Shown piece after piece: positions 17,343 to 31,881 of a DNA stretch of 64,000 nt. The notes beneath the pieces are model-generated. The model saw only the letters and a program-made list of their open reading frames with translations. It searched no databases and was not told where the DNA came from. The translations under genes were made by a program, and so were the position numbers. Position 1 is the first letter of the stretch. Each line of letters begins with the position of its first letter. The stretch is from a bacterium (GTDB lineage: Bacteria > Zhuqueibacterota > Zhuqueibacteria > Residuimicrobiales > Krinioviventaceae). The stretch covers positions 1 through 64,000 of the forward strand of contig CAXXFV010000014.1 of assembly GCA_963674595.2 (NCBI GenBank), given 5' to 3'.

Positions 17343-17735
17343 TTATTTTTTCATGAATTGTGTTACACCGGCTTTAGCTTCTGTTTCTAAAATATCTACC
17401 AATTCATCAATGGAATAATCTTCCCTCTTGGTAACAAAAGAAAGAACCATTGGCAAATTCAATCCTGACAACACACGGACACAAGGATAGTCTTTTGCAA
17501 TTGCAGCAGCAACGTTCCAGCAACTGCCTCCCTTTAAACTTGCCATAATAATAAGACCATCTGATTCACAATCCGGTGCATCGACAATAGATAAAAGTCG
17601 TTGAGTTATTTCCGTAACAGACATATTTGTAACAGTTAGGGCAAATAAATTATCAACCATTCCGATAATATTATCAACGGCTTCAATCATTGCATCACCA
17701 ATCGGTCCATGAGTTATTAGAATGGCTTTTTTCAT
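17343..17735 (-). CDS. PTS mannose-family IIA component
   Basis: LITHG phospho-His motif, GGS, GLNLPM. Confidence 0.9.
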   Translation of the reverse strand: MKKAILITHGPIGDAMIEAVDNIIGMVDNLFALTVTNMSVTEITQRLLSIVDAPDCESDGLIIMASLKGGSCWNVAAAIAKDYPCVRVLSGLNLPMVLSFVTKREDYSIDELVDILETEAKAGVTQFMKK

Positions 17736-17752
17736 AAAAAACTCCGTTTTGT

Positions 17753-18739
17753 TCAGGTTTTTGGGTTGTTCATTTTGTTTTGCATGCTGGCAATAAGTTG
17801 ATCATTAAACTCTTTTGCCGGATTCTCCCCCTGCTGTTTCAGCTTGTGGTTCATGGCAATGACTTCAGCAATAACGGTTATGTTTTTTCCTCCAAATATG
17901 GGCAATTCAACCAACGGAACATTAACTCCCAGAATATTTGTTGTTTTATCGTCAACACCGATTCGTTCATACTCTCTTTGATCGTCCCACAGCTCCAGAT
18001 TTACAACAACATCAATTTTCTTTTTGCCCCGAACTCCTCTTACTCCAAACATTCGGCGAACGTCAATAATTCCAACTCCCCGAATTTCCATATGATAGGA
18101 AAGAATGTTATTAGAAGCACCTTCTAATTCATTCGTACCAATTTTTGTTATACACACAGCATCGTCTGCCACCATTTGATGGCCACGTTCAATCAAATCA
18201 AGCGTTAATTCACTTTTTCCGATAGCACTTGGCCCGGTAATTAACATGCCGACACTGTAAATATCAACCAATGAACCGTGGACAATTGTATAGGGGGCAA
18301 ATATGGTGTCAAGATATTCACTCAAATGCTGAACAGCACTTGTTGTACTCATTGGAGTAGATAGAATGGTAATGGCATTTTTGTTGGCAATATCAATCAA
18401 CTCCTGGGTCGGTAGATTATCGTTCGTAATAATCATGCAGGGTAAATCAAATCCCAATACAATAGATATGGCGTTAATTCGGTCTTGTCCGTGCAGCGTA
18501 TTTAAAAAGCCTATTTCCGTATTTCCCAATATCTGCACACGCCAATAGGTAAATACTTCAATAAATCCACTCAAAGCCAATCCCGGACGATGAATTTCTT
18601 TTTCTTTAATTTTTCTGCCAAAACTAATATCACTGTTGACAATTTTTAATTCGAGTCTTTCGAGATTATCTTCATATAATTGTTTAACAGTAATAAACGG
18701 TCTGACTTTGGGATTATTGGCCTGGTTTAACTCCATCAA
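17753..18739 (-). CDS. hprK: HPr kinase/phosphorylase
   Basis: HRPGLAL, GPSAIGKSE P-loop, VADD, MEIRGVGII; AGGAG RBS before TTG-ATG. Confidence 0.95.
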   Translation of the reverse strand: MMELNQANNPKVRPFITVKQLYEDNLERLELKIVNSDISFGRKIKEKEIHRPGLALSGFIEVFTYWRVQILGNTEIGFLNTLHGQDRINAISIVLGFDLPCMIITNDNLPTQELIDIANKNAITILSTPMSTTSAVQHLSEYLDTIFAPYTIVHGSLVDIYSVGMLITGPSAIGKSELTLDLIERGHQMVADDAVCITKIGTNELEGASNNILSYHMEIRGVGIIDVRRMFGVRGVRGKKKIDVVVNLELWDDQREYERIGVDDKTTNILGVNVPLVELPIFGGKNITVIAEVIAMNHKLKQQGENPAKEFNDQLIASMQNKMNNPKT

Positions 18740-18785
18740 CCATATCTCCTTTGAGTTAAGCGGGGAAAATTTGAACGCCCATAAC

Positions 18786-18813
18786 AAAAAAGGGGCTCAA
18801 AATTTGAGCCCCT
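18786..18813 (-). terminator. Rho-independent terminator after hpf
   Basis: GAGGGGCTCAAA-TTTTGAGCCCC-TTTTTT on the minus strand. Confidence 0.8.
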
Positions 18814-18852
18814 CAATATCGTTAAAATTGAAAATTAATTCAAGGTATATTT

Positions 18853-19170
18853 TTATTCAATATTTTCAACAATACGCTCTTTTTCAAAATGACGACTTTT
18901 TTCTTTATGTTTAATTATCTTTCTTTCCAATTTGTCCACAGCCAGGACAATCGATTTATACATATCTTCACTTTTTTCAACAACAGCAAATTTTGTCCCA
19001 AATACTTTGGTAACTATTTCAGCAACCTGCTGTTGTTTTACATAATCCAAAATTATTTCAACTTCAAAAATCCCATCATAATATTTTTCAAGTCTTTGCA
19101 CCTCATTTTCTGCATGATCACGAAGCCTGTCAGATGTTTTAAAATGTCTTGCCGTGAATGTTACTCTCAT
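18853..19170 (-). CDS. hpf: Ribosome hibernation promoting factor (HPF/RaiA)
   Basis: TARHF start, SEDMYKSIVLAVDKLERKI; AGGAGG RBS. Confidence 0.92.
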   Translation of the reverse strand: MRVTFTARHFKTSDRLRDHAENEVQRLEKYYDGIFEVEIILDYVKQQQVAEIVTKVFGTKFAVVEKSEDMYKSIVLAVDKLERKIIKHKEKSRHFEKERIVENIE

Positions 19171-19243
19171 CGGAACCTCCTTTTAATACAAAGTAGGTTA
19201 ATGGTTCAAGTTAATTAAATATAATATAAAAGTAAAAAATTCA

Positions 19244-20191
19244 TCATCCTCTTTTGTCCGATGCTTTATCATCAGCACGAGGATGCGCCTGTTTATAGAC
19301 ACGTTTTAAATGTTCTGCAGATACATGTGTATAAATTTGTGTTGTAGTTAAATTCGAATGCCCCAACAGCTCTTTTACAGACATCAAATCTGCGCCTTCG
19401 TCCAACAAATGAGTAGCAAACGTATGTCTTAGCGTATGAGGATGGGCTTTTTCTTTTCCGGCAATCTTTTCTATATATTGTTTAACTAAAACGGCTATCT
19501 GCTGTCGTGTAAACGGCCTGTTATCTTTTTTAACAAATAAAAAATCGTCTTGTTCCGTTTTTTTTCGTTCAGCAATTTGTTTGGCAATAATATACTTTTT
19601 TAAATCATTTAGTACTCTAGTCCCGACAGGCACAATACGCTGCTTATTCCCCTTTCCCAAAATGCGTAACGTTCCTGCCTCAAAATTAATATTTTTGAGA
19701 CGTATACCGGACAATTCCGAAACACGAATCCCGGTTGCATAGAATAACTCTAGTATAATCAAATCGCGTAAACCTTCATATTTTTCTATATCAGGAAGCA
19801 GCAAAATATGTTCCACTTGTTCCTTGGCTAAAAAGTGTGGTAATTTACGCTCCAGCCTGGGACTGGCTATATTTAATACAGGATTATTATCAATAACCTG
19901 CTCACGTAATAAAAAACGGGAAAAGGAACGCAGGCTTGCCAATTTCCGTGCAATACTTTTGGAGGATACTTTATTCTTAACCAAAAGCGCCAGCCAGCCT
20001 CTGACGGTTGGTTTGTTGAAAAGATCAAATCCCGGTGATTCCAGTTTAAAACGTTCGGCAAGATAATCAGCAAACTGCATCAGGTCATTCTCATAGGCAG
20101 CAACAGTGTGAGTTGAACTTTTTTTAATCACCTGCAAATATCGTATAAACCTGGGGATCCAGGAATGAATATTATTTTCCGATCTATCCAT
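19244..20191 (-). CDS. xerC: Tyrosine recombinase XerC
   Basis: ARKLASLRSF, TGIRVSEL, GKGNKQR, HPHTLRHTFATHLL, LGH, TTQIYTH; position between topA-like gene and hpf. Confidence 0.92.
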   Translation of the reverse strand: MDRSENNIHSWIPRFIRYLQVIKKSSTHTVAAYENDLMQFADYLAERFKLESPGFDLFNKPTVRGWLALLVKNKVSSKSIARKLASLRSFSRFLLREQVIDNNPVLNIASPRLERKLPHFLAKEQVEHILLLPDIEKYEGLRDLIILELFYATGIRVSELSGIRLKNINFEAGTLRILGKGNKQRIVPVGTRVLNDLKKYIIAKQIAERKKTEQDDFLFVKKDNRPFTRQQIAVLVKQYIEKIAGKEKAHPHTLRHTFATHLLDEGADLMSVKELLGHSNLTTTQIYTHVSAEHLKRVYKQAHPRADDKASDKRG

Positions 20192-20198
20192 ATTCTCC

Positions 20199-22388
20199 TT
20201 AAAAGTGATGTTTATACTTGAGCGCCTGCAAATTCTCATCAAATTTAATATGACATTTATCACACAAAAATCCGTCGCGCATATCAGGCAAGGTAATTCG
20301 CAATAAATAAGAATTATCACATTTTGGGCAGGTAATATTTACAGGCCTTTTCCAAACAGAAAAATCACATTGCGGATAGGCGCTGCACCCGTAAAAAACC
20401 TTACCCTTTTTGGAAATTCTTTCTATAACCTGTCCGGAACAGTTGTCTCTCGGGCATTTCATTCCAATACTCAACGGCATTGAAAAACGGCAGGAGGGAT
20501 ACCCGGAACAGGCCCAAAATCGACCATACGGTCCTTTACGTACAATCATCGGCCTGTTACACTTGGGGCATGTTTGTTCCTGTTCCTTGAAATTATCTTC
20601 GGCTGAAAGGGTAAAAGAACAGGAAGCAGGATAATTTTCACAAGCCCAATATTGACCGTTAGGACCGCTCTTTAACACCATCTTACCCTGGCATAAAACA
20701 CAAATACGTGGTCTGCCTGCGGCATCGCCAAAGGTCTCCGGGCTATCCCAAAATTCTAAAAACCTGGTCCATACATTTGAAAAGCGTTTTTCAGTTGTGC
20801 ATTTTTCAAACAACTCTTCAAACTCGACAAACTTTTCAAAATTGAAAAAACGGGGAAAATTTTTCTGTAAATGATTATATGTTTTTCGTGCCAAATCCGT
20901 AGGTAATACTTTATTATCAATAAACTCGAAAAAATCTGTTTGATGACACATAACTGAAACAGAATAAGGATCCAACATGGAATTTAACGGACTTGCAGCG
21001 AGTTCGCCAAAAAGTTTTTCACAGGAATAATAAGAATCCTTGTCAACTTGTTCACTATGGGTATCGATGTTACTAATTTTAAAAACCTGGCCTTCTCTCA
21101 CGGTTTCCGGTATTGCGGCATTTTTCCTTTTCTTTTTTATTAGAGTATCGTAAACCTGGCAGAATCCTCTAAATAATTCCTTTTCTTCAAATGCTGAAAA
21201 AGTATATTTTTCGTCTTCACTTTGTAATTCTATTTCAATTTGTTCCTTAACAGCATCCTTCATTTGTGAAGCGATTGTGCGGTTCCAGATGAGTGTATAG
21301 ATACAATGCTGTTCCGGTGTTAAATGTTTACGTAATTTCTTTGGTGTAAGTTTGATATTGGCAGGATAAATAAACAACTGTAAACTTTTTTCACCATATT
21401 CTCTTTTTTGTTTTGGCAGATAGTCATTACCATAATCCTGAAAAATCAATTCCCGAATTTTCACGGCAATATCTTCAGAATCAAAAGTACCTGACACAAT
21501 GTTCAAAAGACTCTGTTTGCGCCCGGAAATGTCCACTCCGTCAAGTTCATGAACAAGGCATATAATTCTTGCCGGAGAAAACTTGTAAAGACGGCAGGCG
21601 TCAGAAACAAGTGATACCATCGTATAGGGAGGAAACGGGTGTGTGATCAGTTTTTTATTTTTAATTTTTGCTACTTTAAATTCCTGTTGTTTTAGGTCAA
21701 TTACCACCGCTTTTATATAATTAACATCAAAAATATTGGGCTTTCTTCCCTTTATTTTTGATAATCCCGCAAAAATTTTAGTTTTTTGTTGTGTTTTCAA
21801 ATCCCCGGTTAACTGCCATTTTTTACTATTCTTAACGGAATTGTTTTGTTCAAATTCACACAACTTGTACAAAACATGACTACATAATCTGTTCCACGAA
21901 TAATTCTTTGTAATATTATCTTTTAAAACTTTATTAAATGTTTCGGACAAATAATAATCAACAGCTCCGCTTATTATCGCCGCATTAAAAGGTTTTATCT
22001 TTATGGCTCTTTCAACGGATTGGGAAAATCCTTCACGAGTTACGGCATTCAAATATAACCGCTTTATTCTGCTGGATGGGCAGTTCTGTTCAATCAACTG
22101 ATGATATAAAGATAAAGTCAACAGTTCGCCCTGAAATGTATGCGGAAACGCAAGATAGATTTGTTTGTATAATTTTGGGACCAGATCGGGGTATGTATCT
22201 GATAAATTAAAACTAACTTTCAGCTTTGGCAGAAAATGATCAGACGACCGAACAAAATCATAGTTCTCCCCCAAATTATGACAAGAGATAACAGTGTACA
22301 ATTCGCCAAAAAAAGTTTCGAGATTCATTTTCTCAGCATCATTGTTAATGAAAATAAGAATTTGTCTTTTTTGCAATAGGCGACCCAA
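20199..22388 (-). CDS. Highly diverged DNA topoisomerase IA (TopA) homologue with four C-terminal Zn ribbons; catalytic motifs absent
   Basis: PFPPYT, DYGNDYLP, YTLIWNRTIASQM, FRGF, LPTDL and GPYGRFWACSGYPSC are colinear with TopA; smg-topA-xerC synteny. Confidence 0.8.
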   Translation of the reverse strand: MGRLLQKRQILIFINNDAEKMNLETFFGELYTVISCHNLGENYDFVRSSDHFLPKLKVSFNLSDTYPDLVPKLYKQIYLAFPHTFQGELLTLSLYHQLIEQNCPSSRIKRLYLNAVTREGFSQSVERAIKIKPFNAAIISGAVDYYLSETFNKVLKDNITKNYSWNRLCSHVLYKLCEFEQNNSVKNSKKWQLTGDLKTQQKTKIFAGLSKIKGRKPNIFDVNYIKAVVIDLKQQEFKVAKIKNKKLITHPFPPYTMVSLVSDACRLYKFSPARIICLVHELDGVDISGRKQSLLNIVSGTFDSEDIAVKIRELIFQDYGNDYLPKQKREYGEKSLQLFIYPANIKLTPKKLRKHLTPEQHCIYTLIWNRTIASQMKDAVKEQIEIELQSEDEKYTFSAFEEKELFRGFCQVYDTLIKKKRKNAAIPETVREGQVFKISNIDTHSEQVDKDSYYSCEKLFGELAASPLNSMLDPYSVSVMCHQTDFFEFIDNKVLPTDLARKTYNHLQKNFPRFFNFEKFVEFEELFEKCTTEKRFSNVWTRFLEFWDSPETFGDAAGRPRICVLCQGKMVLKSGPNGQYWACENYPASCSFTLSAEDNFKEQEQTCPKCNRPMIVRKGPYGRFWACSGYPSCRFSMPLSIGMKCPRDNCSGQVIERISKKGKVFYGCSAYPQCDFSVWKRPVNITCPKCDNSYLLRITLPDMRDGFLCDKCHIKFDENLQALKYKHHF

Positions 22389-22397
22389 ACGAAAAAA

Positions 22398-22868
22398 TTA
22401 ATGTTGGAATCGATTCGAGGAAGTAAACTGAAAATAACCGGTAGATGCACTGTCTTCAAACTCTAACATAACTGCAGCAATTAAATCCTGCATTTCTTCA
22501 ACATTCATTTCTTGTATTTGCAGATATTGTGCTCGTTCAATAATCCGCTCCATATCACTATCACTTAAAATCTCAAGTTCTCTCAGGTGAAACAAATAGC
22601 TAAAAGCTGTTGGTGAGATAACAGTTTGTTCTGTTTCATTTAATTGACGCCAAATTGGCTTTGGTATATTACTCAACGGGCTTTGTAATAACCTGTCAAC
22701 ACTTTCGCCATGGTCCATAAGCCATGACATTGCAGTTGATATTTCCTCGTCACTAAAACCTTGTTCACTTAATATATCAAATAATAATTGCAAATCTAAA
22801 TTCTCCAAAGAGCTGTCACGAATTTCACGCATAACATTTGATAAAATTTCTAGAATGCGTTTATTCAT
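22398..22868 (-). CDS. smg: Smg/DUF494 family protein
   Basis: LSEQGFSDEEISTAMSWL, RQLNETE, ERIIER; adjacent to the topA-like gene. Confidence 0.85.
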   Translation of the reverse strand: MNKRILEILSNVMREIRDSSLENLDLQLLFDILSEQGFSDEEISTAMSWLMDHGESVDRLLQSPLSNIPKPIWRQLNETEQTVISPTAFSYLFHLRELEILSDSDMERIIERAQYLQIQEMNVEEMQDLIAAVMLEFEDSASTGYFQFTSSNRFQH

Positions 22869-23002: not shown

Positions 23003-26000
23003 TCAGTTAGCGCGTCCGCAACAGTTTTTATATTTTTTACCGCTTCCGCAAGGGCAAGGATCGTTTCGTCCGACTTTTTTAGTCTTGACAATAGGAGCTG
23101 TTTTTCGCGGTTGAGTTCCTGCCTGAACCGGCGAAGCTTTACTTTGTTTTGCCCCCATAACCTGTTTAAAAACCTCAACCTGCGAGTGAGTCATATTGTA
23201 TTGTTGCGGTTCAACACGCCTTAATTGCTGCTCTTCTATTTCCCCACCGACATCAAACACTTTAAAGAGGGTACTAACAACATCCCTGTTAATGCTATCA
23301 ATGGTTTTGACAAACATTTTATAGGCTTCACTTTTATATTCAAGCAACGGATCTTTTTGTCCGTAACCTCGTAATCCGATACCTTCACGCAGTTCATCAA
23401 CACCACTCAAATGCTGACGCCAATTTTCATCAATTTTTTCCAGCACATAATAACGTTCATATCGGGTTGCAAGAGCAGAACCTATTTCATTTACCCGGTT
23501 TATATAAAGTTTTTTGGCCCATTCGCTTACCTCATCCAGGACAAGATTTGGGTCCAAGGCCTCATCACTTTCATCTCTGAGACGCGGGGCCTGACGAAAA
23601 ACGAGCCGGCAATCTGTTTCCAGACGATTTGCCATGTCAGGATCTAAAATTTTATCACTGTTCAAAACACTGCTTATAATGTTATAAATCGTTTCGTCAA
23701 TCATCATAAGAACAGAATCTCTAACAATTTCACTGCTTATTCGTTCCTGACGGAACCGTTCAACCCGGTCGGCATATACTTTATATAAATTGAGTCCCCA
23801 GGCTACCATTTGTTCGCGAAAGACAGCATAATCCTCATCTTTAGATCCACTTGGCAGGGCCTTGTCAGGTTTACTCAAAAACATAAAATCAAGCTGCTGG
23901 GAAAATAGTTTCTTTGTCTTTTCATCTGCCTTTGCATCTGTACTTTTGTTAACCAGTGCAATAATCGAAGCTTCTATCAATTCTTCAATTGTTGCATTCG
24001 CCAGCATAATATCGTTATAAACTTGAGAATATTTAGAAAACGTCTCAGAATAGGTCAAGCGGACCTGTTTCATTGTCTGGTTCTTTAAAGAATTTTCTGC
24101 TTCTGCTTCATCAATTGTGATATTAAACGGCTGTCCGAATACTTTTTCAAGGAAATCTTGCTGCTCTTTTATAAGTTGGTTGTTTTCTTGTTCATTAGGA
24201 GATCCCAATTCCTGAAAACAATGGTCAACAATAATATGAGCAAAGTTTATATTTGAAAAATATCCTAAAATCCGGTGCCTTATTTGATTTCCCTGTTCAA
24301 TATTTAAATGATCATTCATCCACTCCAAAACACGTTCACGAATGACCTCCCGTCGAATACTCTTTAATTCATTGCTGCCCAATGAAGGGACATCAAAAAA
24401 TATTCTTTCAATATCCTTTAAAAATTCATCGGTAGTCCAGGTAGCCGGCGAGCCTTTAGCATTCAAATGACGGTCCATTATTCCAGTCAGATAAATCCGG
24501 ATCATCTCTTTTATGTCCAGAGATTCAAATATAATTTTAGCTACAGAGTCAGTGCCATTTTCAACTTTATCAGAATAAACTTTTCTGCCCCAGGAGACAA
24601 TTTTTTCTTCCAAAGCATCAGCATCCGGAAGGTCTGTTTGGTTCATCAACCATTCCGGCCCAACACCTAAAATACGCTCAAATTCAAAAACAATACCTTC
24701 CAAATTCCATTTTGAGGTATCCCGGGAGCCGGCATTATGCAGTTTTATCTTTAATTTAATTAAAACGTCTAAAATATCATCAAGAGAGCAATAACCATAT
24801 ATACGATGCCGTTCCTGCATTTGATGCTGGTCTTTTTCCTGCTCAAGTTTACTTAAAACCCAATCCTGAATTTTTTCTTTAATTTCGCTCTGCTTTAAAG
24901 TTTGTAAATCTTCTAAAGTAAAATCAGGCTCAGCCCCAAAGAACTCTTTTAAATTTTCAATCAGTTCATCAAGTTTCCAATCGGTATGATCGTCCTCTTC
25001 TCCGAAAAATCGTTTTGTTTTTGATTCTACAAAATCTTCGGCCTGTGCGAACCCAAGCAGGTTCTGACGTCGTTTGTAAATAATTTTTCTCTGGTCATTT
25101 AAAACATTGTCATATTCCAGCAGATTTTTACGAATTTCAAAGTTACGTTCTTCAACCTTTTTTTGTGCTCGTTCAATAGACCGGGTAATCAGCGGATGTT
25201 CAATTCTTTCACCTTCTTGCATATCTCCAAGCCGGCTCATAACATTTGTAATACGGTCGGAACCAAACAGTCGCATTAAATCATCTTCTAATGACAAATA
25301 AAAACGTGAAGCACCCGGGTCACCCTGACGTCCGGCACGACCGCGAAGCTGACGGTCAATTCTTCGGGCCTCATGTTTTTCAGAACCTAATATTTGTAAA
25401 CCACCGTGTTTTATCACATCCGGAGTCAGTTTAATATCCGTACCACGACCGGCCATATTTGTAGCAATTGTAATTGAACCCGGCAAACCGGCTTTGGCTA
25501 CAATTTCAGCTTCGCTTTTATGATATTTGGCATTTAACACGGTGTGAAAACGACCGGATTCCAGTTCTTTGGTAACGTCACCTTTTTTCAACCAATTTGC
25601 CACCGGTATACCACGATGCGTAAATAAAGTACTTAGATGCTGAGAAACATCAACGGAAACCGTACCTATTAAAATGGGTAGCCCTTTTTCATGTAATTCC
25701 AATGCCTCATCAATAATAGCATCGTACTTTTCTTTTTTAGTACGATAGATAACATCATTATTGTCCTTACGGATAACAGGTTTGTTCGTTGGAATAACAA
25801 TTACTTCAAGTTCATATGTACTAAAAAACTCCTGCGATTCGGTTTCGGCAGTACCGGTCATACCGGCGAGTTTGTGATAAATTCGGAAAAAATTCTGCAG
25901 GGTAATGGTCGCCAGAGTCTGACTTTCAGACTGAACCTCAACTCCTTCTTTTGCTTCCAAAGCCTCATGTAAACCGTCGCTAAACCGGCGTCCCGGCATT

Positions 26001-29000
26001 AATCGACCGGTAAACTGATCAACAATCATAACGGCTTTGCGTCCGCGTGCCGTACCGGCGCGTCGCATTTCGCCTTCTTCTACTGCTTTAACAACATAAT
26101 CCACGTCGTTTTTATATAATGTATAGGCGCGAAGTAATTGACTTATATTTTGTACACGGTCTTCAACCTGCGAATAATCCTGCCAGAGTTTGTTACGCCG
26201 ACTTTCTAAAATAGCTCTGGGCTTTCTTTCAAAATGAATCCTGAACCAGTGCTCGATTTCTTCAGATGTCATTACAAAATTTTGAGCATGAGCATTGGCC
26301 AAAAGTTCATTCATTTCGCGTTCTTCAAGCATAATCCGTTTTGCACGGAGCTGTGCTTTGTCTTTCGGTAAAAGGGCATCAAGCTCCGAACGTGTGGACA
26401 CCTTTTTACTGGAAAAATGCAAAATATCATCGCGAAACGCTTTTAGTTCTTCATCATAACTGAAAAACGGAAGTCCATCAACCAGATACTGCCTGGCAGA
26501 GCTTAACAAACGTTTGGGAATTTGCTGTTCATCCAGTTCAAAAACAGAATCCGCATCAATATTAATATCATCCAAAAGTTTTACGAGTTGTTCCGTAACC
26601 TGAAAACGTTCATTTGCTGAACTGGTCAAACTTTTTATACCATTATTAGACAGTCCTTTAAATCTCAAATCACTGGAAGATTTCGCAGCCTGTCCGTTGC
26701 TGTCAAAATCTAAATAACGGCGTAAAAATCGTTGTTTCTCCTGGTCTGAAAATTCACTTCTTTTTATAGTTGAGAACAAACTCTTAAATACATTTTGTAA
26801 ACGTTCAACATCTTCAAAACGTCGGGATAAACTTGGTATATTATCATTATTAAAAGATGTTGCCAGATATTCATCCAGTTCGATTCTTAACTGGACTGAA
26901 TTTGCGTTCTCGTCAGCTTTATGGGTTTGCTGCCATTTCAGGATTTTTTCAGCCACACTCTTCAAGTTAAATCCCAAAAGTCTTTCTATTTCAGTATCAG
27001 CCAAACCAAGAATATTACCGTTTTCATCTAAATCAAATATTTGTTCAATTTCATTCGAATAACGTCCAAGGTCTTTATCAAGCAAAAGAACAATATCATT
27101 TACCTGCTGAGCAAAGTCCGACAAGAAATTATAACCCAGCTTTGAAAAGTCGAGCCGGTCTAAAGAGCCAACCTTTTCACGTTTGTAAAACAAAGGTTCC
27201 AGTTTTGATACATCTGTTTGTACATATTGATATATCTGAGAAATCTCTAATTGTAATTTTTCAGCAGCCTGAACACGGGCGGCATAATCAAAAGCAGATT
27301 GATTCAGGGTCCTGTCAAGTATCTGCTTTACTTGCCTATCCTGTTCTTCAACAAGGCTGCGGTCAGGTAAAATATAAATATCCGGATTTCCACCAAGTAA
27401 AGCAATTCTACCTTTTTCAGATATATGTTTTAAAACGGTGCCATTATCTGAAAATTCAAAGTATTCCTGGCGGCGGTCTTCTGTTATACTTTCAGATTGG
27501 GTTGTTTTCTTGTCATCAACAGACGAGCTGCCGGCTGTATCCAGCATGGATGCAATTTTTGAGATATAGGGAACAAGAAAGGGATCGCCCTTGCAAACCA
27601 TTGCAAACAAGGCAAGCTTGCCGCTTTCCGTCAAACCCGTTATAGCGCCTAATTGTTTTTCAACCTGGAAAAAAGTTTGAATAATTTCACGACGACGGTC
27701 CTGTTGCCCACGAGAAATCTGGCCTCCGGCATCAACATCGGCTATATTTTGGATGAGTTTTAATAAATTTTGCAGCTCACCGACAAATTGAGAAAAATCC
27801 TCAGATCCATCACTTTGTAAATATTTAGCACCACTCTCTGTCAGGTTGTTGACCATTCGGTCCATTCGTTTGGAAAAATTAAAATTTTCACGCCAGATTG
27901 AATTTTTATCCGTCCTTTTTTCCTGAACATCCTGAGAGATTTTAGTTTCCAAATTAGCAAAATGCTCAACAAATTTTTCAAGCTTTTCATAATCGTCTTT
28001 ACCCGGGCGTTTAGTAATTTGACAAAGCAGTAATTGCCCTTCAAAGGTAATGCCGTTACATAAACCCGATATGGGGTCAAGAGTAAAATATTGGGCCGGC
28101 TTTTTCTGTTCGCTTAAATCGTACAAGGCCTGATCAAGCTCATCCAGTTTTTGAATTTTTTCTGCAATATCCTGGTCACGTCCGCCTGATAAAAAGATAC
28201 GTCCTTTTTCAGTAATATCTAAAACATGGCTTTTTTCATCAATCGTATAATACAGTTCACCATCAACCTGACCCATGGTTTTATTGATTTCATGCTGCCC
28301 CAGAATTTTTTCAATCAGCTTTTTAACCCAAAACTCTGACGTTTGCAAGTCCAAAAGTTCCTGGTTTTTCGGATCACCACGTTGTGCCCGTAAAAGCATA
28401 AGACCGGCAAGTTCTTCGTCCTTTTCAAGTAAATCCTTACCTTCGCGGACAAATTGTTCCACAAGCTCTTTTTGTTTCGTGTAAAGATTGGAAACAATGG
28501 GTTTAAGTTCATAATAAATATTTCGTGGCGCACCAACAGCACCGGATATGATCAAAGGTGTTCGGGCTTCGTCGATAAGGACACTGTCTACTTCATCAAC
28601 AATTGCATAATGCAAAGGACGCTGAACAACAGACCATACATCTGTTGTCATATTGTCACGAAGATAGTCAAAACCAAACTCATTATTGGTCCCATAGGTA
28701 ATATCAGCCATATAGGCATGTTTTTTTTGTTCAGGGTCCAAATCACCGTAAAGTGCGGCGACTTTTAGGCCCAAAAACTCGTAAATTTTTCCCATCCACT
28801 CACAGTCACGTTGTGCCAAATAGTCATTCACGGTAATAAGGTGAACGCCTTTTCCTTCAAGTGCATTTAAATATAACGGCATTGTAGCGACCAGTGTTTT
28901 TCCTTCACCCGTTGCCATTTCTGCAATTTTTCCCTCATGCAAAACAATACCGCCGATAAGCTGGACATCATAAGGAATCATATTCCATTCAATTTCTTGT

Positions 29001-29272
29001 CCGCGTACCAACCATTTTTTGCCTAAAAGACGACGGCAGGTATCCTTAACAGCCGCAAAAGCCTCAGGTAATATATCGTCAAGCGTTTCGCCCATATTTA
29101 AACGATAGCGAAATTCATGGGTTTTGGCTTTTAATTCATCGTCAGTCAAGGATTTATATTTTTCAGCTATCTGATTAATATCTTCAACGATAGGACGAAT
29201 ACGTTTCAACTCACGTTCTGTGCTTGTCCCACCCATTATTTTGGAAAAAAACTGTTCTACTTTTTCTAACAT
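23003..29272 (-). CDS. secA: Preprotein translocase ATPase SecA, giant form (2089 aa)
   Basis: [65 protein letters not shown]; SEC-C motif [19 protein letters not shown]. Confidence 0.97.
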
Positions 29273-29396: not shown

Positions 29397-29915
29397 TTAT
29401 TCAGGTTCAACTTTGGAATCAGAGCTGTTGCTCTTTAATCCTCTTCCAACTTTAACAATTTGATTAGACTTTTTCAAGTTCAAGAGTACGGCATCAAGCA
29501 CGCCATTTATAAAACCAGCGCTTTTTTCCGTGCTATAGCGTTTGGATAATTCTATAGCTTCGTCAATTGAAACCTTTGGCGGGATATCAAAAAACTCGAG
29601 CATTTCACAAATTGCCAAACATAATATAAGCTTATCCAGTATAGCAATTCTTCCATATTCCCAATTAGCGGAATATTTTGAAATTATTTCATTATACTCT
29701 TCTCGCTTATTATAGGTTCTCTCAACAAGTTCTTTGGCAAAAGCAAGTGCAGGTGTTTCCGATTCGTAACAACCAAAGTGTTCCTGAACTACATAACGTA
29801 AAGATCCCTCTGTAAGTTCCAAAGAATATAAAGCGCGCAAGGCAATTTCTCTGGCTTTTCTTCTTGAAGTCGGCGGGACTGTTGAAGCAAATAATGTATC
29901 GTCGTTATATTTCAT
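29397..29915 (-). CDS. nusB: Transcription antitermination factor NusB
   Basis: RRKARE, IPPKVSIDEAIELSKRY, FINGVLD. Confidence 0.95.
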   Translation of the reverse strand: MKYNDDTLFASTVPPTSRRKAREIALRALYSLELTEGSLRYVVQEHFGCYESETPALAFAKELVERTYNKREEYNEIISKYSANWEYGRIAILDKLILCLAICEMLEFFDIPPKVSIDEAIELSKRYSTEKSAGFINGVLDAVLLNLKKSNQIVKVGRGLKSNSSDSKVEPE

Positions 29916-30183
29916 TTTATCTTAAAAATTGGTGCCATTTATAAATATTATTACATTTATCATTTTTATATTAAAATTTATTTTTTAAACTCTTGTAACA
30001 GGACTCGGAACCGGATCCATATACTGTAACAATTGGTTCCTTAAAAAATTCTGATTCTAAACTGAACAACACAAGTCATGTAGAATTTTTTACATCACTC
30101 TGGTCAACAAACTATTCATTCATCCAAATTTTGCCCTGTTCATCTCCGAATGCCCACAAAAAATCCTTTAAACTAAATTAACA

Positions 30184-31881
30184 TCATCGTAAATCTTTGG
30201 CCCGAAGCTGAATTGTTTTTCGGCCCATATATTCATTTTCATCAATAACATATGCCAGGTCCAAGTGGGTATCACCGGTATTTACACGATAATAATAATC
30301 ACCCATATTAAAGCCGATAACATCAAACACAGCGCCATTTTGCCGGATTTTGAAACGAAGATGATTTTTTCCTACAATCGAAGGAGTTCCAATAACTTGA
30401 ATATTTTTTGAAACAAAAACAGGGCGCATATTATGCGGCCCAAAAGGTGCAAATAATTTTAAAAACTTTAAAAACTGAGAATCGACGTCACCTAAATGCA
30501 ACTCGGCGTCAATTAAAAGTTTTGGAGTTAAAAGGTCCTCTGTTAACTTTTTCTGTGCTATTTCTTCAAAACGAATTCGAAATTCTGGAATATTTCCTTC
30601 TTTAATCGTTAGTCCGGCAGCGTATTTATGACCGCCATAAGCAACCAACAAATCTTCACACTCTCTTAAAGATTCATACAAATCAAAGCCCTGAACACTG
30701 CGAGCAGATCCCTTGCCGATACCGTCCTCAATCGAAAGCAATATTGTGGGGCGGTAATATTTTTCAACAACACGCGAAGCAACAATACCAATAACTCCTG
30801 TATGCCACCCTTCCTGCGCCAAAACAATAGAATGGGTTTTTGTCAATTCATATTGTTTTTCTGCAAGTTGTTGTGCCTGAATAAAGGTTTCTTCATCAAC
30901 ATTTTTCCGATTGCGATTTTCCTGTTCAAGAACAGTGGCAATTTGTTTTGCCTCTAAAGAATCTTCAGTCGTTAAAAGCCTTACGGCACGCTCAGCATTA
31001 CCCATTCGCCCGACAGCATTTATTCGTGGGGCTATGATAAATACAATTTGACCGGTTCCAATTTCTTTTCCGGTCAATCCTGCGGCTTGTATAAGGGCGG
31101 TTAATCCAATATTATCACTGTCATTGAGCCGACGCAATCCGTTTTTAACAAAAATCCTGTTTTCATCTACCAAAGGTACAATATCAGCAGCGGTCCCTAT
31201 GGCAACCAGTTCAATATACTTTTCCAGAATAGACACATCAATATTCATGCGTAAAAGCAAACCCTGGGCTAATTTATAAGCCACTCCAACACCGGCCAGT
31301 TGTTTAAAGGGATATTGGCAATCAGTACGTTTTGGATCGATAACCGCAACAGCCGGCGGCATGTTATCACTTGGCTCATGATGATCACTTACAATAACAT
31401 CAATATTCAAGCTGTTAGCAAGAATAATTTCATTATGGCCTGTAATCCCGCAATCTGTTGTAACAATAAGATTTACGTTGTTTTTCCTTGCTTCTTCAAT
31501 GCCGGCTTCGGATAATCCATAACCCTCAATTTGGCGATCAGGAATATAATAAGTGACGTTGGCACCCAATTCCTTTAACAACAAATACAGAAAAGAAACT
31601 GAAGTAATTCCGTCAACATCATAATCGCCATAAATCAAAATTTTCTCATCACTCAACAGAGCCTTTCGAAGTCTTTCACAGGCTTTAGCCATATCAGCCA
31701 TAAGGAAAGGATCATAAAGCTCATCAATTGAGGCGCGAAAAAATCGTCTGGCTTCTTCGGTTGTGTTTACGCCTCTCCGTAACAAAATTTGAGTAATGAT
31801 AGGGGGTATTTTTAAATTATTTGATAATTCTGTGGCATCACCTTTTGAAAGGTCCTCCAAAAACTCCCACTGCAAATTCAT
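30184..31881 (-). CDS. recJ: ssDNA exonuclease RecJ
   Basis: GDYDVDG, SDHH, PRINAVGR, GSARS, GGH. Confidence 0.97.
   Translation of the reverse strand: MNLQWEFLEDLSKGDATELSNNLKIPPIITQILLRRGVNTTEEARRFFRASIDELYDPFLMADMAKACERLRKALLSDEKILIYGDYDVDGITSVSFLYLLLKELGANVTYYIPDRQIEGYGLSEAGIEEARKNNVNLIVTTDCGITGHNEIILANSLNIDVIVSDHHEPSDNMPPAVAVIDPKRTDCQYPFKQLAGVGVAYKLAQGLLLRMNIDVSILEKYIELVAIGTAADIVPLVDENRIFVKNGLRRLNDSDNIGLTALIQAAGLTGKEIGTGQIVFIIAPRINAVGRMGNAERAVRLLTTEDSLEAKQIATVLEQENRNRKNVDEETFIQAQQLAEKQYELTKTHSIVLAQEGWHTGVIGIVASRVVEKYYRPTILLSIEDGIGKGSARSVQGFDLYESLRECEDLLVAYGGHKYAAGLTIKEGNIPEFRIRFEEIAQKKLTEDLLTPKLLIDAELHLGDVDSQFLKFLKLFAPFGPHNMRPVFVSKNIQVIGTPSIVGKNHLRFKIRQNGAVFDVIGFNMGDYYYRVNTGDTHLDLAYVIDENEYMGRKTIQLRAKDLR

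Follow-up and report, generated by a model that had tools for sequence, protein, structure and literature searches.

A probable ancient tandem amplification of a PPXD module in the housekeeping SecA of one bacterial order

In the 64,000-nucleotide stretch of bacterial DNA analysed here (positions 1 to 64,000 of contig CAXXFV010000014.1, assembly GCA_963674595.2; hereafter the window), a single open reading frame (ORF) encodes a giant SecA of 2089 amino acids (aa), in which the preprotein cross-linking domain (PPXD) carries an insert of about 660 residues. We consider it likely that this insert arose by an ancient tandem amplification of a PPXD module, shared by the whole order to which the bacterium belongs and residing in its housekeeping SecA. 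The copied module, of about 50–70 aa, is the canonical beta-hairpin of the PPXD bulb with the short helix that follows it and a helical spacer, and it shows the pattern aromatic-F-x-hydrophobic-D/E ... G-L-T/S-E-x-G-x-x-x-L. The array is made up of one canonical copy (U1), about eight extra ones (U2–U9) and a helical tail (aa 940–1035). Few bacterial machines are as well studied and as conserved as SecA, and here this essential protein, usually present as the sole copy, has 2.3 times its normal size, thus providing a natural experiment on how much load the mobile PPXD tolerates without loss of function; it also bears on what purpose the distal bulb and the wing domain serve, a matter little understood even in E. 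coli. Within the literature searched, such a large PPXD add-on of SecA has not been described before, given that no title or abstract on a giant SecA or on a PPXD amplification was found in full-text searches, with most subscription journals outside their scope.

The insert and its repeated module

Compared with canonical SecA, the insert of the PPXD bulb is placed after the helix that follows the canonical hairpin and before the long helix that precedes the second PPXD hairpin, and the BLAST alignment of the giant protein to the canonical 934-aa SecA encoded elsewhere in the same genome (G000) picks up again at aa 1040 (Table 1). Measured from the RTPLIIS motif to GMTGTA, the PPXD region spans 169 aa in that 934-aa SecA, 273–306 aa in the SecAs of sister orders and classes, 918 aa in the window protein and 891–929 aa in the giant family. 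Nine copies of the hairpin-helix motif had been proposed in the initial annotation of this DNA, and all ten of the strings quoted for them do lie within the giant ORF, within about 30 nucleotides (nt) of the positions assigned to them there. The proposed spacing of roughly 50–110 aa also agrees with our measurements, which range from 51 to 108 aa over aa 341–930 (54, 69, 70, 70, 90, 51, 108 and 57 aa between successive unit starts). U1, U2, U4 and U5 have an invariant motif glycine, and in U3 and U8 this residue is nearly invariant. As had equally been proposed, no repeat is evident at the DNA level: positions 26183–28285 hold only one 20-nt two-copy match, which looks like a chance match, and the insert contains no tandem array.

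Table 1. Features of the giant secA gene and its surroundings in the window. Each unit starts at the first residue given, which corresponds to the upper window coordinate on the minus strand; the second part of U8 starts at aa 873. AF2, AlphaFold2 model.
Feature	Window coordinates	Strand	Residues (aa)	Remarks
Giant secA	23003..29272	minus	1–2089	single ORF; motor identified as SecA by Pfam and NCBIfam
PPXD-bulb insert relative to canonical SecA	26213..28189	minus	362–1020	about 660 aa
U1	28175..28252	minus	341–366	canonical PPXD hairpin-helix; mean column conservation 0.97
U2	28025..28090	minus	395–416	AF2 strands 396–398 and 405–408, helix 410–416; G412 invariant
U3	27812..27883	minus	464–487	AF2 hairpin 464–466 and 474–477, helix 479–487
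U4	27596..27673	minus	534–559	AF2 hairpin 535–537 and 544–547, helix 549–559; G551 invariant
U5 with ancestral NPD..LPD tail	27353..27463	minus	604–640	aa 619–638 almost invariant
U6	27122..27193	minus	694–717	AF2 hairpin 696–701 and 704–709, helix 711–717; core with the lowest conservation among the units (0.36)
U7, probable copy	26975..27040	minus	745–766	AF2 hairpin 746–748 and 754–757, helix 759–766
U8, longer hairpin loop	26624..26716	minus	853–883	AF2 strands 854–857 and 870–874, helix 876–883; G873 and G878 nearly invariant in the family alignment
U9, probable copy	26483..26545	minus	910–930	AF2 hairpin 911–913 and 919–922, helix 924–930
Single-copy C-terminal PPXD half	25853..26212	minus	1021–1140	47% identity to canonical SecA
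Neighbour genes	17343–22868 and 29397–31881	minus		housekeeping; recJ-like and nusB upstream of giant secA
Genes downstream of giant secA		minus		DUF494 (Smg-like), topoisomerase I (topA), XerC/D-type tyrosine recombinase, HPr kinase, phosphotransferase system (PTS) EIIA

Ahead of the array, an extra helical segment of about 55–75 aa (window 28265–28489, aa 262–336) lies between the stem joining the first nucleotide-binding domain (NBD1) to the PPXD and the canonical hairpin; it is present in the SecAs of sister orders and missing from E. coli SecA and the 934-aa SecA. A candidate “unit 0” at aa 262–287 was rejected, as it aligned to U3 solely inside a long multi-unit alignment and is predicted to be helical.

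Internal repeats in the family profile

Relatives were searched with aa 330–1030 as the query, and among the 8000 candidates scored, 46 other proteins were retained at E ≤ 1e-3. These share 36–49% identity over the insert and nearly all have 2049–2111 aa, three being shorter and apparently truncated; two of the 46 carry the NCBI name candidate division KSB1 bacterium. The family alignment comprised the 44 full-length members, with the three truncated proteins (P0026, P0032 and P0046) omitted.

The family profile of aa 225–1135 was compared with a renamed copy of itself by means of the alternative alignments of hhalign. Internal self-similarity, which the initial annotation had named as the check on its proposal, was found with P down to 7e-17 and in register with the units: the off-diagonal alignments (P 7.3e-17, 9.4e-17, 1.6e-8, 3.6e-8 and 6.9e-8, among others) start at local positions 117, 171, 239–241 and 380, that is, at aa 341, 395, 463–465 and 604, which are the unit starts. 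One of them (P 6.9e-8) is a colinear block that lays U6-U7-U8-U9 onto U1-U2-U3-U4, with U7 falling onto U2.

The units were also compared pairwise by hhalign as separate profiles. The 36 unit pairs scored a median of 19.4 and a maximum of 46.4, as against a median of 10.3 and a maximum of 19.5 when one partner was reversed (36 pairs), and a median of 10.7, a 95th percentile of 15.4 and a maximum of 26.1 in the 81 pairs made with length-matched unrelated segments from aa 1405–2069 of the same protein. The 95th percentile of this second control was exceeded by 25 of the 36 real pairs, and its maximum by 11 of them. Most pairs aligned in register over 47–62 columns, and the repeated unit is thus larger than the 17-aa motif that had been taken as the unit in the initial annotation, although the recurrence of the motif itself stands. 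The best pairs were U1-U2 (E 6.1e-10), U4-U5 and U2-U4 (both 1.2e-7), U2-U3 (1.9e-7) and U1-U5 (2.6e-7), followed by U3-U8 (3.4e-7), U1-U3 (7.1e-7), U1-U6 (2.7e-6), U3-U6 (9.4e-6) and U2-U8 (4.6e-5). By these profile comparisons, the seven units U1–U6 and U8 appear firmly linked to one another. U7 and U9 found each other at E 2.7e-5 (score 31.5); the other U7 pairs scored 18.7 at most, and U4-U9 scored 24.7, over the 95th percentile of the second control and under its maximum.

Descent from the single hairpin of other SecAs

Residues 246–270 of E. coli SecA align to aa 337–361 of the giant protein in a phmmer search against PDB sequences, which identifies U1 as the canonical PPXD hairpin. The comparison set consisted of 15 SecAs that belong to sister orders and classes within the phylum; they have ORFs of 1014–1183 aa and one hairpin each. 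The profile of this single sister hairpin matched U1 at 7.6e-20, U5 at 7.5e-9, U3 at 2.1e-5 and U6 at 2.6e-5, and more weakly U4 (7e-4) and U2 (1.6e-3), with reversed controls of 13.9 at most. In the sister SecAs, the hairpin is followed by SPNDPEMFVLPD, and in the giant SecA the equivalent NPD..LPD tail follows U5 and not U1. Given that the sister unit has its head like U1 and its tail like the one found after U5, the extra material falls into two blocks, aa 362–603 (U2–U4) and aa about 660–1020 (U6–U9).

With canonical SecA (E. coli, PDB 2FSF/2VDA/6GOX, and the 934-aa SecA of G000), the giant protein shares a PPXD located within NBD1, the hairpin-helix Y/F-x-V/I-D-E-K...L-T-E-x-G and the single-copy, conserved C-terminal half of the PPXD; in contrast, canonical SecA has one hairpin where the giant SecA has about nine, and the solved structures have no counterpart of the extra material. 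The long SecAs of sister orders and those of the PRK12901 type have in common with the giant protein the helical segment (aa 262–336) and the NPD..LPD tail with its helix, but the sister-order SecAs stay at one hairpin, and the insert profile does not reach them. The starting point would have been a SecA of the ~1050-aa type with a single hairpin, in which an ancient tandem amplification would then have taken place inside the PPXD.

Predicted structure of the insert

An AlphaFold2 model of aa 225–1142 was made from the alignment of 29 of the 30 loci fetched (L020, cut by a contig end, was left out). It has a mean predicted local distance difference test (pLDDT) value of 75.1 and a predicted template-modelling score (pTM) of 0.53, with most of the insert at pLDDT 80–95. 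In this model, DSSP assigns a strand-strand-short helix element to the sites of U2–U5 (aa 396–416, 464–487, 535–559 and 605–625) and of U6–U9 (aa 696–717, 746–766, 854–883 and 911–930), with two or three longer helices between successive elements. Values below 50 are found in U1 and the canonical PPXD core, which were modelled without their NBD1 context, and in the linker at aa 580–596. Folded alone (aa 366–582), U2–U4 reach a pLDDT of 90.3 and a pTM of 0.87, and they are predicted to pack into one compact three-unit body instead of a floppy string of beads; the insert as a whole is likewise predicted to be a folded, length-constrained body and not a linker.

The U4–U5 linker (window 27476–27535, aa 580–599) is rich in Ser, Asp, Lys and Thr, with a conservation of 0.16–0.17 and a pLDDT below 50; no other part of the insert combines poor conservation with so low a pLDDT. 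The two halves of the array may be hinged here.

Fold searches gave no significant match: with Foldseek against the PDB, the best E was 0.094 for the 918-aa model and 0.99 for the U2–U4 model; VIA-align of U2–U4 against 48,161 chains reached a best Z of 4.3, under the usual chance level of 7–8, with a PPXD stretch of SecA2 (4uaq_A 240–299) at Z 2.8 and rank 26, within the noise; and a look-up of U2–U4 in the ESM Atlas returned no usable match. The modelled three-unit body may be a new repeat architecture, the absent PDB match being no proof of a new fold.

This missing PDB match would also suit a foreign domain captured by SecA, the likeness of which to the PPXD hairpin would be convergent, and so would the fact that the isolated units have no Pfam match at all: the scan of each unit with SecA_PP_bind that had been proposed in the initial annotation matched none of the nine, even with E values up to 10 allowed. 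Since U1, the canonical hairpin, failed as well, the single-unit Pfam scan had no power. Against a foreign origin, the units match U1 and the canonical hairpin of sister orders, U5 retains the ancestral NPD..LPD tail, and a profile of the insert (aa 366–1020) run against 1.84 billion representative proteins gave 7 matches with no other family among them. The two long ones are SecA-family proteins of 2073 and 1575 aa that belong to the giant family and were already among the relatives; the other five, pieces of 91–625 aa, are taken to be fragments. No donor family and no intermediate forms of the insert were found among these 1.84 billion proteins. Capture of a foreign domain is, therefore, largely refuted and, in our estimation, very improbable.

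Order-wide occurrence in a housekeeping SecA

The genome survey covered 167 genomes of this KSB1-like phylum, 43 of them in the order of the window (the unpublished genomes G158 and G162 are included in the tallies). The full insert was found in 42 of these 43 and missed only in G090, a genome of 78% completeness. Outside the order, 103 of the 124 genomes have a match restricted to the U1 region (query residues 2 to at most 66), in SecA ORFs of about 1010–1180 aa, and the remaining 21 have no match to the insert query. All nine units are kept in each of the 29 aligned loci, and this, together with a near-constant length and the loss of any repeat at the DNA level, bears out the earlier view of an old and retained amplification, which, to judge from this distribution, predates the radiation of one order of the KSB1-like phylum.

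In 39 of the 42 genomes holding the giant gene, it is the only SecA_DEAD match, and the closed one-contig genome G085 has the giant gene only; an additional, uninterrupted SecA_DEAD match occurs in 4 of the 43 genomes of the order (G000, G089, G090 and G092). Being the sole SecA in most genomes, including the closed one, the giant protein is the housekeeping SecA of its order.

Its motor is well recognised by Pfam (SecA_DEAD 5e-123, P-loop_SecA 1.4e-67, SecA_SW 5e-56), besides having the SEC-C zinc motif at the C terminus (2.3e-9, aa 2069–2087) and a Walker A GEGKT (aa 122–126) that is invariant in the 44-sequence family alignment. The SecA_DEAD match is split around the PPXD, which sits inside NBD1, and SecA_PP_bind is matched by its profile positions 47–110 only, at aa 1012–1106. 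In NCBIfam, the giant protein passes the equivalog cut-offs of PRK12904 (968.2 vs. 814) and TIGR00963 (896.5 vs. 800), while its top model, the Bacteroidota-type PRK12901 of 1118 positions, scores 1065.4, below its cut-off of 1493. Accessory SecA2 proteins share the SecA motor architecture, but the giant protein fails all their cut-offs (TIGR03714, 646.8 vs. 930; TIGR04221, 518.5 vs. 725; TIGR04397, 775.3 vs. 1085; NF012136, 577.4 vs. 1100), is the sole SecA in the 39 genomes mentioned above, and is larger where SecA2 proteins are of a size below SecA1, not above. By its sequence, the gene is a bona fide secA, and its product is predicted to work as the ATP-driven motor of SecYEG.

Weighing the amplification

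Several results count against the amplification as we read it. U7, U8 and U9 match the sister hairpin at control level and join the array through other units only; U7 and U9 seem firmly tied to each other and weakly to the other units. A pooled leave-one-out hidden Markov model (HMM) recovered 3 of the 9 left-out units (U1, U4 at 11.6 bits, and U5); to pool divergent units is cruder than to compare profiles unit by unit. The alignments are shallow, with 29–44 sequences of a single order. Conservation is 0.55 in the hairpin-helix cores vs. 0.52 in the spacers, and the cores are not marked in this way as functional sites, the only units that stand out being U1 (0.97) and U5 with its tail (0.77 to 0.95). 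Given the low confidence of U1 and the PPXD core, the AlphaFold2 model does not place the insert relative to the clamp, SecY or the wing domain (HWD). Finally, SecB (PF02556) passes its cut-off in 2 of the 167 genomes of the phylum, the classical SecA-coupled chaperone being generally lacking, and since it is scarce phylum-wide, its absence is not specific to the order of the window.

Some of these points could be turned into a denial of any true repeats, the motif being then a chance or compositional effect in a helix-rich, biased sequence; the motif is indeed short and degenerate, the pooled model missed most units, and one unrelated control pair scored 26.1. Such an effect is largely refuted and most improbable, given that both control sets stay far under the real scores, that the alignments run colinearly across several units and keep their register, and that AlphaFold2 independently predicts one and the same strand-strand-helix element at 8 of the motif sites. 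We thus maintain that an amplified PPXD module is the likely reading.

Possible roles of the added modules

One stretch only of the giant protein, the invariant aa 1094–1104 (G1094–A1104), aligns to the canonical GRRYSDGLH segment, and we take this stretch to be the PP loop. In PMC9926265, the substrate clamp is described as the PPXD loop (residues 326–331) together with the pair of strands that connects NBD1 to the PPXD. The multiplied piece is the distal-bulb hairpin module, not the clamp; the “substrate-clamp module” and the “preprotein-binding arm” of the initial annotation are not supported in this form, as the known clamp elements are single-copy and located elsewhere in the PPXD. With the stem strands and the PP loop being single-copy and invariant, the motor would probably function like that of other SecAs. 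We suggest only tentatively, and with more doubt than conviction, that the add-on rigidly extends the distal PPXD bulb and so provides extra surface for binding near the clamp and the signal-peptide groove. Unfolded preprotein could be held there, or a partner protein docked, possibly with a contribution from the multiplied HWD-like units described below.

A serious rival is an add-on devoid of any direct substrate role, namely a tolerated and locked-in expansion of a PPXD surface loop (constructive neutral evolution) that is kept for protein stability; we regard this as possible but not probable, on a par with the added binding surface. It would fit with an insert conservation of 0.52–0.55 as compared with 0.82–0.89 in the motor (mean column values), with hairpin cores conserved no more than their spacers, with the charge and hydropathy of the insert, which are ordinary and give no functional clue, and with the clamp elements having stayed single-copy and invariant. 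It is harder to reconcile with about 660 aa of near-constant length that are free of frame breaks in all 29 aligned loci of five families, with the confidently predicted fold of the insert, and with the parallel multiplication of a second domain of the same protein, which suggests coordinated change over drift.

This second domain is the wing-domain region, which is also multiplied (window 23468–25030, aa ~1415–1935). The family profile of aa 1400–2010 aligns to itself off the diagonal with P from 8e-19 to 5e-16, at shifts of about 86 and 180 aa, and roughly five or six HWD-like units of the W..L...F type are found in the giant SecA vs. one in canonical SecA. Both expansions occur in every full-length member of the family (about 2050–2110 aa). 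According to review PMC5963308, the PPXD of canonical SecA is packed next to the HWD in the closed state, with the signal-sequence site between them. It is conceivable, though in our opinion rather unlikely, that the PPXD modules and the HWD-like modules face each other as the walls of a long cradle built into the protein, where unfolded preproteins or long signal/mature regions would be bound before they reach the single-copy clamp; if this were true, a SecB-poor lineage would have a motor carrying an integrated holdase, on a new repeat fold. A complex prediction of insert aa 366–850 against aa 1420–1930 scored 0.06 (mark 0.32), which speaks neither for nor against a contact.

The same neighbourhood of PPXD and HWD, the strong internal repeats of the wing region and the joint presence of both expansions would also agree with a regulatory or autoinhibitory latch, or with an enlarged PPXD-HWD interface, in the place of a preprotein holdase. 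Neither a contact nor the relative placement of the two arrays came out of the models, and we judge this latch or interface to be doubtful.

Further SecA genes in the order

The genome of the window (G000) encodes its second, canonical SecA of 934 aa at contig C23:840038-841171 (locus L001). This protein is of the PRK12904 type (1229 bits, cut-off 814) and carries an insertion in NBD2 that is missing from the giant SecA, to whose motor it is 47–49% identical; the contamination rating of G000 is 5%, which bears on the origin of this gene.

In genome G089, the giant secA (L049, G089:C1:75500-83500) is split into two overlapping ORFs of 794 and 1320 aa in different frames, with the frame break at ~3267–3409 of L049, inside the insert between U7 and U8, as a result of either an assembly error or real decay; G089 also holds a canonical SecA of 856 aa.

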